From a virus, in the IMG/VR virus record IMGVR_UViG_3300046007_003718, positions 32,001-96,000 of that record: DNA of 64,000 nt; one strand, 5' to 3'. The translations under genes and the position numbers were made by a program. Shown here piece by piece: positions 10,073 to 32,198 of the stretch. The notes under the pieces are model-generated. The model saw only the letters and a list, made by a program, of their open reading frames with translations. It made no database searches and had not been told where the DNA came from. Numbering within the stretch: the first letter of the stretch is position 1; each line of letters opens with the position of its first letter.

Positions 10073-11110
10073 CTAGAAGGCCGTCACCTCCTCCACCTCA
10101 TCCTCGGACAGCAGGCCCGCCTCCACGATGAAGGGCGAGACCCCGGTGATGTTGCGCCCGTAGACGGAGGTGCTGCTGACGAACAGAACGTCCTCGGCGC
10201 GGGTCATGGCGACGTATGCCATGCGGCGCTCCTCCTCAACGTCCTGCGGGGTCTTGGCGAGCGCGTGGGGCAGCAGGCCCTCGCTCATCCCGGCGATGAA
10301 CACGACCGGCCATTCCAGCCCCTTGGAGCGGTGGATGCTGAGGATGGTCACGGCGTCGTCCTCGTTCTCGCCCCGGAGGTCGGAGGCCTTGGCGGTCACG
10401 CTCTCCTGCTCCACGAACCATGCGACGAACGCCGCGAGGTCGTCCCCGAACTCGGCCCCGGAGAGGGCTACGTCCTCCACGATTGCGATGGAGCCGTCGC
10501 CGTTGGTCTCGGGGGTCTCGGTGTCCTCCTCGGCCTGATCGCGCAGCCATGCGGCCACCCCGGAGTCCTCAGCGATGCCGCGCACAATGTCAATCACGGG
10601 CACCTTGCCGACCATCTCACGGTACTTGCGAATGAGGGCGATGAAGGCGTCCATGTTGTCCTTCTGGCGACGGTTTATACGGGCGTCCTTAAGGCCAAAG
10701 AACGGGTCGTTCGGGCAGGCAGCGTAGGCCTGACGGGCGACACCGGCACCAAGGAACCGCGAGGGCGTGGACAGGGCCGTGGTCAGGGCCTCCTCGTCGG
10801 CGTTGCCGACGACCACGCGCAGGTAAGAGGTGATCGCCTGAGTCTGGTACCGCTTCCAAAACGACGGGGAACCGATGATGCGAAAGGTGAAGCCAGCGCG
10901 GGTAAACGCGCTTTCCAGCGGGCGGGTCTGACGGTTGGTACGGACCAGCACGGCGATGCTCGCGCCGGGGACACCGGCATCGCGCAGGGCCTTGATCTGG
11001 GTGGCGATGTTGTCGGCCTCCTCGCCCTCGTCGTTGTAGTGCGCGTAGTTGATGGGGTCCAGCCCGGTGGCCGGGATGATGAACTCAGGGATATCGGTGG
11101 TGGTGTCCAT
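10073..11110 (-). CDS. uvrD: UvrD/PcrA/Rep SF1 helicase, C-terminal half (2A/2B domains)
   Basis: AVLVRTNRQ, SIHRSKGLEW (motif V), EERRMAYVAMTRA (motif VI); own TAAGGAG RBS. Confidence 0.9.
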   Translation of the reverse strand: MDTTTDIPEFIIPATGLDPINYAHYNDEGEEADNIATQIKALRDAGVPGASIAVLVRTNRQTRPLESAFTRAGFTFRIIGSPSFWKRYQTQAITSYLRVVVGNADEEALTTALSTPSRFLGAGVARQAYAACPNDPFFGLKDARINRRQKDNMDAFIALIRKYREMVGKVPVIDIVRGIAEDSGVAAWLRDQAEEDTETPETNGDGSIAIVEDVALSGAEFGDDLAAFVAWFVEQESVTAKASDLRGENEDDAVTILSIHRSKGLEWPVVFIAGMSEGLLPHALAKTPQDVEEERRMAYVAMTRAEDVLFVSSTSVYGRNITGVSPFIVEAGLLSEDEVEEVTAF

Positions 11111-11135
11111 GTGGTCTCCTTAGTCGTGTAGAGGC

Positions 11136-11185
11136 ATCGTACAGGAAGGGCCGGGAGGATGCAAGCCCTCCCGGCCCCTCGTTTA
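11136..11185 (-). promoter_or_regulatory. Sigma70-type promoter overlapping a hairpin
   Basis: TTGCAT-N17-TACGAT; -35 sits in the loop of gggccgggagg/cctcccggccc; TAAACG upstream. Confidence 0.7.
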
Positions 11186-11191
11186 TCCGGG

Positions 11192-12271
11192 CTACCCGGC
11201 CAGCACCTCCACCGGGACGCCCTCAGCCTCGTCGTGGTCACGGTGCGGGGCGACCTCCTTGCCCAGCCGCTCCTTGTTGTGGGCGATGAGGCGGGCCGCA
11301 GCCTCCACGATGGGGCGACGGGAGCGGTAGTTGGTACCAAGGTTCACGACCGTCACCTCGCCCTTAGTCTGGGCGATGAACTCGGCAGGGACCGCGCCCC
11401 GGAACGAGTAGATGCTCTGGTCGTCGTCCCCGACCATCGTGAGGTTGGAGGTCTGCGATGCCAGCACCCGCATGAGGCCGAACTGCACCGGGTTGCAGTC
11501 CTGCGCCTCGTCCACGAACACCCACTTGACGCGGCCGATCACGGCCTCGCGCACCTTGTCGTCCTTGGCGGCAGCGAGACCCCGGATGCCCATGCATGAG
11601 AAGGTGACGCTAATCACGCCGCCCTGCCGACGCTTCCAGCCCCGGTCGCGGCCCTTACCCTGAACCGCCCAACCCTCGTCCAGCAGGCGCTCCATGATCT
11701 TGTAAACGGTGCCCACCACCGGGTCGGCATCGGGCAGGGAGAGGTACTGCTCGGCGGTGAGGTTCTGGTCCATGATCTTGGACACGGCCTTGGCGATCTT
11801 GCCAGCCTTGCGGGGCATGTCCACGCCGTACTCGGAGCCGCCCCACTCGCTGTCGTTGGCGAGGTTGTGGCCGAACGGGCAGTAGCGCGAGGGAGCCTCT
11901 ACGATGCCGCGCACCATGCCTGTCACCTGACTCGGGGACAGCAGGGAGCCGCCGTACTTGCCAGCGTTTATCCGCTTACCCTTCTGCTGGCGGTAGAACT
12001 TGTACCCCAGCGAGTGCAGGGTGCCAACGTGGGCCAGCCGCTCCACGACCTCATCACCGACAAGGGTGGCAAGGCGGGACTTCATCTCCTCGGCGGCAGC
12101 CGTGGTGAAGGTAGCCAGCACGATGCTCTCGGGGGCCTCGCCCTCGGAGATGAGGCGGGCGACACGGTGAACCAGCACGCGGGTCTTACCGGAACCAGCA
12201 CCAGCGTTAATGACCAGCGGCCCCTCGCCGTGGTCAATCGCCGTCTGCTGCTCGGGACTCATGGTAGCCAT
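11192..12271 (-). CDS. uvrD: UvrD/PcrA/Rep SF1 helicase, N-terminal half
   Basis: SPEQ (Q), AGAGSGKT (I), TFTTAAAEEM (Ia), GTLHSLG, DEAQD (II), GDDDQSIYSFRGA (III), NYRS. Start set at ATG 12271 after GAGGAGG. Confidence 0.9.
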   Translation of the reverse strand: MATMSPEQQTAIDHGEGPLVINAGAGSGKTRVLVHRVARLISEGEAPESIVLATFTTAAAEEMKSRLATLVGDEVVERLAHVGTLHSLGYKFYRQQKGKRINAGKYGGSLLSPSQVTGMVRGIVEAPSRYCPFGHNLANDSEWGGSEYGVDMPRKAGKIAKAVSKIMDQNLTAEQYLSLPDADPVVGTVYKIMERLLDEGWAVQGKGRDRGWKRRQGGVISVTFSCMGIRGLAAAKDDKVREAVIGRVKWVFVDEAQDCNPVQFGLMRVLASQTSNLTMVGDDDQSIYSFRGAVPAEFIAQTKGEVTVVNLGTNYRSRRPIVEAAARLIAHNKERLGKEVAPHRDHDEAEGVPVEVLAG

Positions 12272-12315
12272 GCTCTTTCCTCCTCGTTCGGCGGGGCCGT
12301 TCCCCGTGTTCACGC

Positions 12316-12356
12316 ATCGTACCACAGGTGGTTCTGAGATTGCAAGTCCTCGTTTA
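12316..12356 (-). promoter_or_regulatory. Early promoter, TAAACG class
   Basis: TAAACG-N5-TTGCAA-N18-TACGAT with TGn extension. Confidence 0.75.
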
Positions 12357-12399
12357 GACGGGGTGCCGCATTGGCGTTTGGGCGCGAGTAGCACACCTT

Positions 12400-23203: not shown

Positions 23204-23243
23204 ATGGTATCAGATCAACCAACCAACTGCAACTACTCGTTTA
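23204..23243 (-). promoter_or_regulatory. Early promoter, TAAACG class
   Basis: TAAACG-N5-TTGCAG-N17-TACCAT. Confidence 0.7.
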
Positions 23244-23477
23244 TACTCCACGCCAACCAGAACAGGTGCCGCATGTGCAACAGCAACTTGTGGGGGATGC
23301 AAGCCAAAGGTAAGCGATAGCCCTCTCAGCATAACGTCCTTTACTATCGGCACAATAAATACGCTGCCAAATAGAGATTGTATCATCGCAGAAGTAACGC
23401 CTATGGGGGTTATCCCATGCCCTCTTATAGATAGGCTTATTAAACCACTCATTATTAGAGCATCCACATCCACACAT
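23241..23477 (-). CDS. Cys-rich small protein
   Basis: AAAGGAGG RBS; CGCGC and CCCTCGTC ends. Confidence 0.5.
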   Translation of the reverse strand: MCGCGCSNNEWFNKPIYKRAWDNPHRRYFCDDTISIWQRIYCADSKGRYAERAIAYLWLASPTSCCCTCGTCSGWRGV

Positions 23478-23502: not shown

Positions 23503-23596
23503 TACCCCTAGCGGGAGTCGAACCCGCGATAAACTTCCGCGTAAGCCAAGCGTCCTTGTGCGTTACCGGCGTCGTTGCCGCTAGACCATTAGGGGC
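23503..23596 (-). ncRNA. tRNA-like RNA with a long non-canonical anticodon arm
   Basis: Acceptor stem GCCCCUA/UAGGGGU, D-arm GUC-UAGCGGCAAC-GAC, T-arm GCGGG-UUCGACU-CCCGC; central arm ends in CAAG-GACG-CUUG; no encoded CCA. Confidence 0.75.
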
Positions 23597-23602
23597 ATGA
23601 GT

Positions 23603-23630
23603 ATTATAGACGGTTCCACAATCAAGTCAA
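23603..23630 (-). promoter_or_regulatory. Consensus-like promoter for the tRNA-like RNA
   Basis: TTGACT-N16-TATAAT ending 6 nt before the acceptor stem. Confidence 0.7.
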
Positions 23631-23639
23631 AGGTAGGCT

Positions 23640-23846
23640 TGACGTAACAATGCCCGCTCCCTGCTCACCCGTCACCGACAACCGATTCCTTTAGTTTACT
23701 TATTATTAGTATAAATGGCTCTCGCGCCTAACGTCCCATATTGGTTGTTAGGATTTCCCGACCTACCAATCGGTTTCTTACGGAGATTCCTCCACCCCAC
23801 TAGGTCAAGAGTGGTAGCCCTCGCCTAGTAGGTCGTGAGAACCGCT
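23640..23846 (-). ncRNA. Putative structured RNA downstream of the hammerhead
   Basis: Non-coding; helices CGACCUAC/GUAGGUCG, ACUAGG/CCUAGU, GGAG/CUCC, CCUAAC/GUUAGG, AACCGAUU/AAUCGGUU. Confidence 0.5.
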
Positions 23847-23889
23847 GACGCCTCTCGGCGTTTCGTCCTATCAGGACTCGTCAGAGCGG
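23842..23889 (-). ncRNA. Hammerhead ribozyme (type I)
   Basis: CCGCU-CUGACGA-GUCCU-GAU-AGGAC-GAAA-CGCC-GAGA-GGCG-UC-AGCGG: complete core, three stems, GUC cleavage triplet. Confidence 0.92.
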
Positions 23890-24041
23890 CTAGTTGCCAT
23901 TACCTTCTTATGAACCTGCATAACCCAACCATCCTCAAAGTCGTGAGCATCACACGCCTCGCCAAGACTTTCGTAGGGGCCATAAGCCATGTACCCCGTA
24001 GAGAGATTACCGACAAGAAATACAAAAGTGTAGTCACCCAT
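23871..24041 (-). CDS. Small hypothetical protein whose 3' end overlaps the hammerhead
   Basis: MGDYTFVF after AAAGGAG; TTGCAT-N17-TATGCT promoter at ~24072-24100. Confidence 0.6.
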   Translation of the reverse strand: MGDYTFVFLVGNLSTGYMAYGPYESLGEACDAHDFEDGWVMQVHKKVMATSRSDES

Positions 24042-31811: not shown

Positions 31812-32198
31812 CTAATCATCTGACTCATCATCCACCTCTTTCCAAAATCTAAATACTGGACTAATAAGCCCAGCGCGAATTGCCGCAGCAACCGCTGACG
31901 GAGGGATTCCTATATTCATATATTCTTCCACTTCCCGGATTGTAATTGATTCTGTTCTCTGCTCTACTTCAAAATTCCGGGTTAACTGCACATACATTAC
32001 TTCAGAATCTGGTTCTCTAAAGTATTTAATACCTTGTTCAGCAAATGCTTGAGAAAGTTCAGAAAACCATTTTTGATAAGGATCTTGTGAAATCTTTTCT
32101 TGCTGATTCTTTATGTGCAATTCATTAAACTGAGCGCGAAATTCTTCAACCATCTCTGGGTCAAAAAGATCATCGAACTCATCTTTGTTCATAGTCAT
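31812..32198 (-). CDS. Hypothetical protein
   Basis: Operon context. Confidence 0.55.
   Translation of the reverse strand: MTMNKDEFDDLFDPEMVEEFRAQFNELHIKNQQEKISQDPYQKWFSELSQAFAEQGIKYFREPDSEVMYVQLTRNFEVEQRTESITIREVEEYMNIGIPPSAVAAAIRAGLISPVFRFWKEVDDESDD

Follow-up and report, generated by a model that had tools for sequence, protein, structure and literature searches.

A type I hammerhead ribozyme at the left border of a conserved non-coding RNA unit in uncultured aquatic phages

The IMG/VR virus record IMGVR_UViG_3300046007_003718 contains, within the 64,000-nucleotide (nt) stretch from position 32,001 to 96,000 (hereafter the window, to which coordinates refer unless another contig is named), a type I hammerhead ribozyme that overlaps the 3' end of a small open reading frame (ORF). 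Comparison with relatives places this ribozyme at the left-hand end of a conserved unit on the minus strand, which opens with the first base of stem I and extends as far as the 3' end of a look-alike of a transfer RNA (tRNA) that lacks an anticodon. Judging from these comparisons, we consider it fairly probable that the hammerhead is functional and that a conserved RNA cassette uses it as its processing signal on the left-hand side. An earlier inspection of the letters alone (the sequence-only reading) had recognized the hammerhead and had proposed that terminating ribosomes gate its cleavage; the identification of the ribozyme stands and is strengthened by its conservation and covariation, whereas the gating mechanism is not sustained.

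Results

A complete type I hammerhead on the minus strand

The core of a type I hammerhead is made up of the bases C3 U4 G5 A6 N7 G8 A9 and G12 A13 A14, of the pair A15.1:U16.1, and of an H17 that can be any base except G. All of these elements are present in the window. The segment CUGACGA occupies positions 23884-23878, GAAA is found at 23864-23861, the A:U closing pair is in place, and the cut-site triplet GUC ends in C17 at position 23847. Stem I pairs A-GCCGCU (23891-23885) with AGCGGU-U (23846-23840) over 7 base pairs (bp), one of them G:U; stem II (4 bp, GUCC/GGAC; 23877-23865) carries the loop UGAUA; and stem III (A-CGCC/GGCG-U; 23861-23848) consists of 5 bp capped by a GAGA tetraloop. 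The topology is that of type I, as loops close stems II and III and stem I is open and built from the 5' and 3' flanks. The sequence-only reading had predicted scission between 23847 and 23846, and the position of C17 agrees with this; its claim of a complete hammerhead with a canonical core and three stems likewise proved correct.

A descriptor search for the core together with stems of at least 5, 3 and 4 bp matched the window at this position alone, and 300 dinucleotide-preserving shuffles used as a control contained no such site. At the gathering thresholds of Rfam no family matched in the hammerhead region. When matches were reported by E-value, the Hammerhead_1 model aligned over its full length with 29 bits against a gathering score of 34, corresponding to E = 6e-5 on an 800-nt stretch and E = 2e-6 for the whole 110-kilobase (kb) record. 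The score stays below the gathering score because stem III is 8 nt longer than that of the Rfam model, and this threshold is a property of the model and not of the ribozyme class. The hammerhead fold is also the minimum free energy (MFE) structure of the isolated 61-mer; the MFE z-score of the isolated motif is -1.64. The element is a complete type I hammerhead and more than a product of chance.

The ribozyme is conserved and covaries in related phages

Relatives were recovered with exact probes taken from the non-coding stretch and from the tRNA look-alike. They provided three other versions of the cassette, namely L122 (a 2-kb metagenome contig), L038 with the near-identical L123, and L124, extended as L131; together with the window, four distinct versions entered the comparison. 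The cassette-bearing phages are uncultured tailed phages from lakes and the sea, with contigs of 77-130 kb. A blastn search of the Phage GenBank records with 1.2 kb returned no match, no relatives were found in viral contigs with the Cys-rich ORF, the phrog_2355 gene or the 56-amino-acid (aa) ORF described below, and a 25-mer from the variable hairpin region matched nothing in the viral contigs.

Each of the three whole virus records carries exactly one Hammerhead_1 match, at the expected place, and the relatives score 21-28.5 bits. In the four-way alignment, all core bases are invariant except for the free position N7, which is C or U. Loop III alternates among the stable tetraloops GAGA, GUGA and UACG, and loop II reads UGAUA, UUAGA or UAAAGA. 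Across the 16 pairs of the hammerhead, 96.9 % of the alignment cells are paired, compared with 27-48 % when the 3' partners are slid along the alignment. Three pairs have changed on both sides: one C:G pair of stem I became U:A, another position in this stem varies among A:U, G:C and G:U, and a C:G pair of stem III became U:A. As read from these aligned copies, the pattern is the one that a functional ribozyme predicts. For hammerheads to cleave fast at cellular Mg2+ levels, loop II has to make a tertiary contact with stem I. In the window, stem I forms a plain helix of 7 bp, and in L038 it consists, by manual reading, of 5 bp, a 2-nt bulge and about 4 bp.

The conserved unit begins at stem I and ends with the tRNA look-alike

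When the window is aligned with L122 by blastn, 387 of 400 positions (97 %) are identical, and the alignment extends from 2 nt before stem I to the acceptor stem of the look-alike. The next gene (phrog_2355) is 84 % identical between the two, and the upstream ORF is left unaligned by blastn; a global alignment of the nucleotide sequence of this ORF gives 56-57 % identity between the window and L122 or L124. In L038, the cassette has the same boundaries, yet its upstream ORF is unrelated, as are the genes on both sides, and a phrog_2355 homologue is found at the opposite end. Between phages the conserved unit is 78-100 % identical, so that its conservation far exceeds that of the flanking genes (Table 1), and the comparison assigns the ribozyme to the downstream RNA and the tRNA look-alike rather than to the gene that it overlaps.

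Table 1. Positions of the hammerhead, the segments of the cassette and the adjacent small ORFs in the window
Feature	Position	Strand	Basis or detail	Identity between versions
Type I hammerhead ribozyme	23840..23891	-	core, three stems, Rfam, descriptor search, conservation	76-94 %
Domain 1 (first RNA domain), predicted five-way junction of about 130 nt	23717..23846	-	RNAalifold on window, L122 and L124	88-96 %
AU-rich linker, then near-invariant block (about 23696-23660, ...CUAAAGGAAUCGGUUGUCGGUGACGGGUGAGCAGG)	23660..23716	-	alignments	
Variable hairpin, then promoter-like segment	23603..23659	-	TTGACT-N16-TATAAT at 23630-23603	
tRNA look-alike, 94 nt	23503..23596	-	ARAGORN forced calls; four-version alignment	87-100 %
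56-aa ORF	23871..24041	-	ATG at 24041, GGAG ribosome-binding site upstream, TGA at 23873-23871	
78-aa Cys-rich ORF	23241..23477	-	own ribosome-binding site, directly 3' of the tRNA look-alike	

The stop codon in loop II is not a conserved feature

The 56-aa ORF ends ...SRSDES*, and its codons for R, S, D, E and S together with the UGA are read from stem I, the core and loop II; the sequence-only reading had noted the SDES* codons over the core and the UGA in this loop, and the translation confirms both. The predicted cut lies 24 nt past the stop codon, so that the cleaved mRNA would keep its stop codon and terminate translation normally. Homologues of this ORF occupy the same position in L122 (21 of 56 residues identical) and L124 (26 of 56); these two are identical to each other at 35 of 49 residues and share the pattern …GNLS.GY.A.GPY…GW.M…. 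Both end …(V/I)EL* at a TAG codon located 5 nt (L122) or 8 nt (L124/L131) before stem I. Since the homologous ORFs stop before stem I, the read-in seen in the window is a derived state: relative to these homologues, the ORF has lost its original stop codon and the short spacer, and its frame continues to the UGA of loop II, the next stop that it meets. L038 carries in the same frame an unrelated ORF of 63 aa that ends NNNRSDES* at a UAA in loop II. The RSDES tail is common to the two ORFs because the sequence of the hammerhead itself translates in this way. The loop II of L124 (UUAGA) offers no stop in that frame.

More than 120 viral stretches contain the core pattern combined with this stem II, and at least 101 of the matches (at least 89 unique) are complete type I copies. 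We surveyed the stop codons of the 89 unique copies among the matches listed with a crude procedure that takes the longest upstream frame. The stop lies before stem I in 30 copies, in the 5' strand of stem I in 16, at the UGA of the core in 14 and deeper in five; the rest have no ORF or an ambiguous frame. A stop codon inside the hammerhead is thus, by this survey, common in phages. The hammerhead offers a stop in two of the three frames, so genes packed against it end there, and as far as the comparison can tell the overlap is an accident of genome compaction rather than a conserved trait. The proposal that terminating ribosomes gate cleavage finds no comparative support, as the overlap is not kept in L122 and L124.

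Among the matches listed, most type I copies are located where two genes meet, and roughly a dozen of the 121 loci have them inside tRNA arrays. In L084 (about 8398, plus strand), L088 (about 6876, plus strand) and L106 (about 7077, plus strand), the cut site of the hammerhead falls on position +1 of a tRNA-Tyr(GTA) gene that belongs to such an array, and the 5' strand of the tRNA-Tyr acceptor is the 3' strand of stem I. With the cut at +1, the ribozyme and not RNase P would generate the 5' end of this tRNA, which would carry a 5'-OH. Type I hammerheads with the same stem II lie between phage tRNA genes in L003, L025, L041, L045, L058, L087, L089, L100 and L112. A sub-family of near-identical hammerheads is formed by L004, L005, L025, L032, L041, L058, L087 and L100; its members have the stem I CUGUCU/AGACAG, the loop II GUAG and the stem III GCCGAAAGGC, and partly conserved non-coding sequence follows them. 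This sub-family may represent another ribozyme-headed RNA.

Predicted structure of the released RNA

For domain 1, RNAalifold predicts that the new 5' end that the cut would create (GGUUCUC.CG) pairs with CG.GAGAGCC at 23726-23717 to form the closing helix P1. Within it are P2, a 15-bp hairpin, the short hairpins P3 (GGAG/CUCC) and P4 (CCGAUU/GGUCGG), and the helix P5 (CCUAAC/GUUAGG). P5 shows three compensatory pairs in L124, where it reads CUCAUC/GAUGAG; the changes in P2 across the window, L122 and L124 are compatible and one-sided. Four of the 7 nt of the 3' strand of stem I are predicted to be reused in P1. When the uncleaved hammerhead is folded together with domain 1, the active fold lies 2.5 kcal/mol above the MFE and the pair probabilities in stem I are 0.01-0.13; the ribozyme would thus have to act co-transcriptionally, whereupon the 5' end can switch to P1. 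An alternative closing helix between the new 5' end and UUGUGGAACCGUCU (about 23621-23607) was discarded, as this partner is invariant and the 5' ends of L124 and L038 do not pair with it.

In L038, the first roughly 190 nt after the cut site differ completely in sequence from domain 1 and escape detection by the covariance model R1 built from it. This region is strongly structured (z = -3.55) and is likewise predicted to close on the new 5' end. Rfam 15 holds no family for the released RNA, the cassettes of the relatives giving only hammerhead and T-arm fragments, and when 135 loci were searched with covariance models for domain 1 and for the look-alike, the cassette relatives were the only ones to match.

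The AU-rich linker behind domain 1 is the site of insertions and deletions between copies. The block that follows it is nearly invariant in all four versions, and a pattern scan finds it only in the cassette relatives. A short ORF starting from a GUG in this block was considered; manual translation gave peptides of about 12-25 aa that are not conserved, in keeping with a non-coding segment. Two contigs from seawater metatranscriptomes match the window only over 23615-23777, with 95-99 % identity, and both end at 23615. Their differences, 3-nt insertions and three substitutions, all fall in the AU-rich linker. These contigs indicate that a close relative of the non-coding RNA exists in marine samples as well as in lakes.

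The promoter-like segment is of the sigma-70 type, agrees with the consensus at 11 of 12 positions and is the only strong site in 2.1 kb; the promoter and terminator scan of the region found no terminator. Its spacer GUGGAACCGUC is invariant, and GUGGAACCGUCUAUAAU is kept in all four versions. The window, L122 and L038 retain the -35 box, but L124 has lost it; without this box, the look-alike of L124 must derive from the long transcript. For the 3' part as a whole (the block, the variable hairpin and the promoter-like segment), no convincing common fold emerged.

The tRNA look-alike and the CCA-adding enzyme

The acceptor stem of the look-alike is 7 bp long, its D arm contains GG, its T arm reads GCGGG-UUCGACU-CCCGC, and no CCA is encoded. 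In place of the anticodon arm there is a bulged hairpin of 10-12 bp, whose tip CAAG-GACG-CUUG is invariant and whose lower part has been remodelled. The acceptor stem is kept in the four versions, with G1:U72 changed to G1:C72 in L038, and the discriminator base varies among them (A, U, G and U). An anticodon arm of the canonical kind, with a 5-bp stem and a 7-nt loop, is missing, and ARAGORN arrived only at forced solutions, either a 96-nt tRNA-Cys(ACA) or a tRNA-Val(GAC) with a 9-nt 'intron'. Transfer-messenger RNA (tmRNA) combines a tRNA-like domain containing G3:U70 with a tag reading frame and pseudoknots. ARAGORN found no tmRNA here; the Rfam match was confined to the T arm, with 18.5 bits against 47, and position 3:70 is C:G. 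A search with a two-block pattern for the look-alike was abandoned, as it returned ordinary tRNA-Glu genes (L125, L126) and unrelated matches in two bacterial metagenome-assembled genomes.

As in t-element-type processing signals, the acceptor stem, the T arm and the GG of the D loop are conserved, and a ribosome-binding site with an ORF follows about 15-70 nt further on. The variable discriminator and the missing CCA fit a processing signal better than an amino-acid carrier. At the same time, the promoter in three of the versions and the conserved extra hairpin suggest a role beyond punctuation.

The look-alike is the only tRNA-shaped gene in the 110-kb record, which contains no canonical tRNA gene. 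The same phage encodes, outside the window (G000:C1, about 108363-110273; L132:64-1974; minus strand), a 636-aa nucleotidyltransferase of the CCA-adding and repair type with PolyA_pol (head), RNA-binding and HD domains and a C-terminal extension of about 170 aa. This enzyme is encoded in all four cassette phages, that is, in the phage of the window and in three related records. Its presence fits a look-alike that would be processed and CCA-tailed.

Gene neighbourhood and virus record

The virus record comprises 110,395 bases, with an estimated completeness of 70 %, and its proteins include a portal protein, an exonuclease, a helicase and a thymidylate synthase. About 20 lake-water DNA metagenome runs carry the stretch without differences. 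The hammerhead is located among a block of small minus-strand genes. About 250 nt free of ORFs lie 3' of the cut site, followed by the tRNA look-alike and then by the ribosome-binding site and reading frame of the 78-aa ORF. The 56-aa ORF is an orphan: it matches no Pfam family, and a search of a large protein database returns only this ORF itself; 15 contigs carry the identical protein. The 78-aa Cys-rich ORF has neither a Pfam family nor relatives in viral contigs and is absent from L122; the comparison thus puts it outside the conserved unit. In L038, the gene directly after the look-alike also encodes a small Cys-rich protein, of about 50 aa with the motif CxC...CxxC, and its sequence is dissimilar from that of the 78-aa protein.

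The base composition of the window is uneven. The G+C content is mostly 38-44 %, with about 50 % at 18-28 kb, and reaches 60-66 % between 10000 and 16000; helicase-like genes (10073-12394) fall inside the high-G+C stretch. This strong compositional mosaic suggests acquired modules.

Discussion

The reading that we favour assigns the hammerhead to the RNA downstream of it. The hammerhead region would be transcribed within a long early transcript, which we infer because all genes lie on this strand and a terminator is lacking. Once transcribed, the ribozyme would fold and cleave itself 24 nt after the stop codon of the small ORF, leaving an upstream mRNA whose 3' end is formed by hairpins II and III and bears a 2',3'-cyclic phosphate, and a downstream RNA that begins with a 5'-OH. 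The freed 5' end, formerly the 3' strand of stem I, would re-pair as P1 and thereby close the multi-helix domain of about 130 nt. The 3' side would be set by enzymes with which the host processes its tRNAs, RNase P cutting the look-alike at its 5' end and trimming taking place at its 3' end, and the CCA-adding enzyme of the phage may then add CCA to the look-alike. In three of the four versions the look-alike could also be transcribed from its own promoter.

A wider proposal can be put forward tentatively, and we regard it as possible but doubtful in its entirety: the cassette would represent a new class of phage RNA, about 345-400 nt long, that needs no dedicated phage nuclease for its ends, the 5'-OH being made by the hammerhead and the 3' end by host tRNA-processing enzymes recruited through the look-alike, with the CCA-adding enzyme finishing it. 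Its first 125-190 nt or so would be an exchangeable module placed on a constant block and the tRNA mimic, the CCA-adding enzyme would be kept in part for finishing this RNA, and the mimic with its GACG-tipped hairpin would be the working part, for instance as a decoy or adaptor for a host tRNA-binding factor.

Several observations weigh against a functional hammerhead that processes this cassette. The Rfam score falls under the curated gathering threshold. The covariation values observed in the hammerhead are matched by 14 of 500 shuffles, and the counts are small because only four versions are available, all from related phages. The changes in P1 are all compatible and one-sided, with no double compensation among them, and at equilibrium alternative folds compete with the active ribozyme. 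The contigs from RNA libraries that match the region span 23615-23777 and leave the cut site outside; as they show neither RNA ends nor transcription, they do not bear on cleavage. With a strong promoter in front of it, the look-alike need not come from a ribozyme-processed transcript at all; and the joint occurrence of the CCA-adding enzyme and the cassette is not independent evidence, since the phages are related.

How do other explanations fare with the same data? The hammerhead could be a generic intercistronic cutter that leaves the upstream mRNA with a structured 3' end bearing a cyclic phosphate and uncouples the decay of this mRNA from that of the RNA downstream, its adjacency to the conserved RNA being without specific meaning. 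Such a role has been proposed in reviews (PMC3088659; PMC6765202), and most of the 89 copies among the matches listed do lie between protein genes, often with a ribosome-binding site and an ATG about 20-40 nt further on. We nevertheless think it unlikely for this locus, because homology between phages sets in precisely at stem I, the ribozyme remains joined to the downstream RNA even where the upstream gene has been replaced (L038), and in both types of cassette the 3' strand of stem I is predicted to double as the 5' strand of the closing helix. Still less probable is that the overlap with the stop codon is a regulatory design in which a ribosome at the UGA of loop II unfolds stems I and II, so that cleavage is coupled to or gated by translation. 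The last eight codons do span the 5' strand of stem I, the core and stem II, where a ribosome must block the active fold, and in two lineages (the window and L038) an ORF ends at the same position of loop II in the same frame; in this phage it is physically plausible that translation and the folding of the ribozyme interfere with each other to some extent. Yet the homologous ORF ends before stem I in L122 and L124, the loop II of L124 lacks a stop in the frame, both read-ins are by unrelated ORFs whose RSDES tail is set by the ribozyme sequence, and stops at many positions in and around phage hammerheads are common among the 89 unique copies. The stop codon and a 24-nt 3' tail would moreover survive the cut, with no obvious effect on termination. 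Stops inside hammerheads are therefore best annotated with caution, as a common by-product of gene packing and not as a sign of regulatory coupling.

The wholesale swap of the first domain between cassette types, the differing gene contexts and the sharp homology boundaries, with 97 % identity inside and 84 % and about 57 % in the flanks, would also be expected of a mobile or recently exchanged element that has the hammerhead as its left end, in the manner of ribozyme-bounded retroelements or of an RNA-mediated transfer through the tRNA-like 3' end; a similar argument has been made for ribozymes resembling that of the hepatitis delta virus (HDV) (PMC6765202). We hold this to be very improbable. 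The record, estimated to be 70 % complete, encodes no reverse transcriptase, RtcB or RNA ligase, each genome has a single hammerhead, no flanking repeats were seen, and three of the four versions retain synteny with the small ORF; the contrast in identity is explained equally well by strong purifying selection acting on a structured RNA. In hammerhead-bounded circular RNAs and retrozymes, two ribozyme copies or repeats flank the unit, and there is a ligase or reverse transcriptase route. The locus does not fit this type of element, with one hammerhead per record and none of the three enzymes just named in a record of only 70 % estimated completeness. That the motif is a chance or decayed look-alike devoid of activity has in its favour the sub-threshold Rfam score and the modest z-score of the isolated motif. 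It is at odds with the absence of matches in 300 shuffles, with the E-value of 2e-6 per genome, and with an invariant core and compensatory changes in the stems next to an ORF that has diverged to 56 % identity, and we consider it negligible.

A functional hammerhead as the left-hand signal of the cassette thus remains our preferred reading. The comparative data tie the ribozyme to the RNA downstream and not to the gene that it overlaps, and the locus offers a concrete and testable case for the role of genomic hammerheads in bacteria and phages, a question that is still open (PMC6765202). As a ribozyme, the hammerhead adds one more member to a well-known class. Less ordinary are a stem I shared with the closing helix of an unclassified RNA, two unrelated first domains, a tRNA mimic without an anticodon and a CCA-adding enzyme in a phage without tRNAs. 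If the proposed processing is true, an unclassified structured RNA and an anticodon-less tRNA mimic join the repertoire of phage RNAs.

Hammerheads of phages and prophages cut polycistronic RNAs both in vitro and in vivo (PMC3088659), and the purpose of bacterial hammerheads is still undefined (PMC6765202). A part in the processing of polycistronic RNAs has been suggested for the hammerheads of bacteria and phages (PMC3088659; PMC6765202), and our preferred reading agrees with it. Our literature search yielded no description of a hammerhead that overlaps a stop codon, or of a cassette combining a hammerhead with a tRNA-like element in phages. The closest relatives are the type I hammerheads of phages and prophages (RF00163, clan CL00010; Perreault et al. 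2011, PMC3088659), which have the same core and an open stem I junction. The GUCC/GGAC stem II of the RF00163 consensus is shared by the copy in the window, and both reside in polycistronic units of phages. In a haloarchaeal virus (halovirus HF1/HF2), a hammerhead maps to the 5' end of an early transcript (PMC3088659), a position that the copy in the window would resemble. Unlike the phage copies of RF00163, the hammerhead of the window heads a conserved non-coding RNA and not a protein gene; it also differs in its longer stem III (29 vs 34 bits) and in the ORF stop within loop II. Theta ribozymes, which are minimal HDV-like ribozymes, trim the 3' ends of phage tRNAs (Kienbeck et al. 2024, PMC10879173). 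They resemble the case described here in that a cis-acting, self-cleaving ribozyme of a tailed phage defines an end of a tRNA-type RNA without a host endonuclease, and they differ in belonging to another ribozyme class and in that the tRNAs whose 3' ends they adjoin are genuine ones from gut phages, in many cases suppressors (PMC10879173). The hammerhead of the window is found in aquatic phages, lies 250 nt upstream of an anticodon-less look-alike and would make the 5' end of the RNA in between.

tRNA punctuation, the t-elements of plant mitochondria and the MALAT1-mascRNA pair are examples of tRNA-like signals at transcript junctions. By analogy with t-elements and MALAT1-mascRNA, the window would have a non-decoding mimic of the acceptor and T arms at the place where RNase P and 3' processing would cut. 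In contrast to such signals, the look-alike is preceded in three versions by a promoter of its own and contains an additional hairpin that is conserved. In RNA engineering, ribozyme-guide-ribozyme and tRNA-guide cassettes are artificial designs for the release of an RNA whose 5' end is exact. The phage cassette would follow the same logic, with stem I formed by the first bases of the cargo and a tRNA fold at the other end, and if this analogy is true it would be a natural counterpart of these ribozyme and tRNA release cassettes, differing from them in that its cargo is a natural structured RNA.

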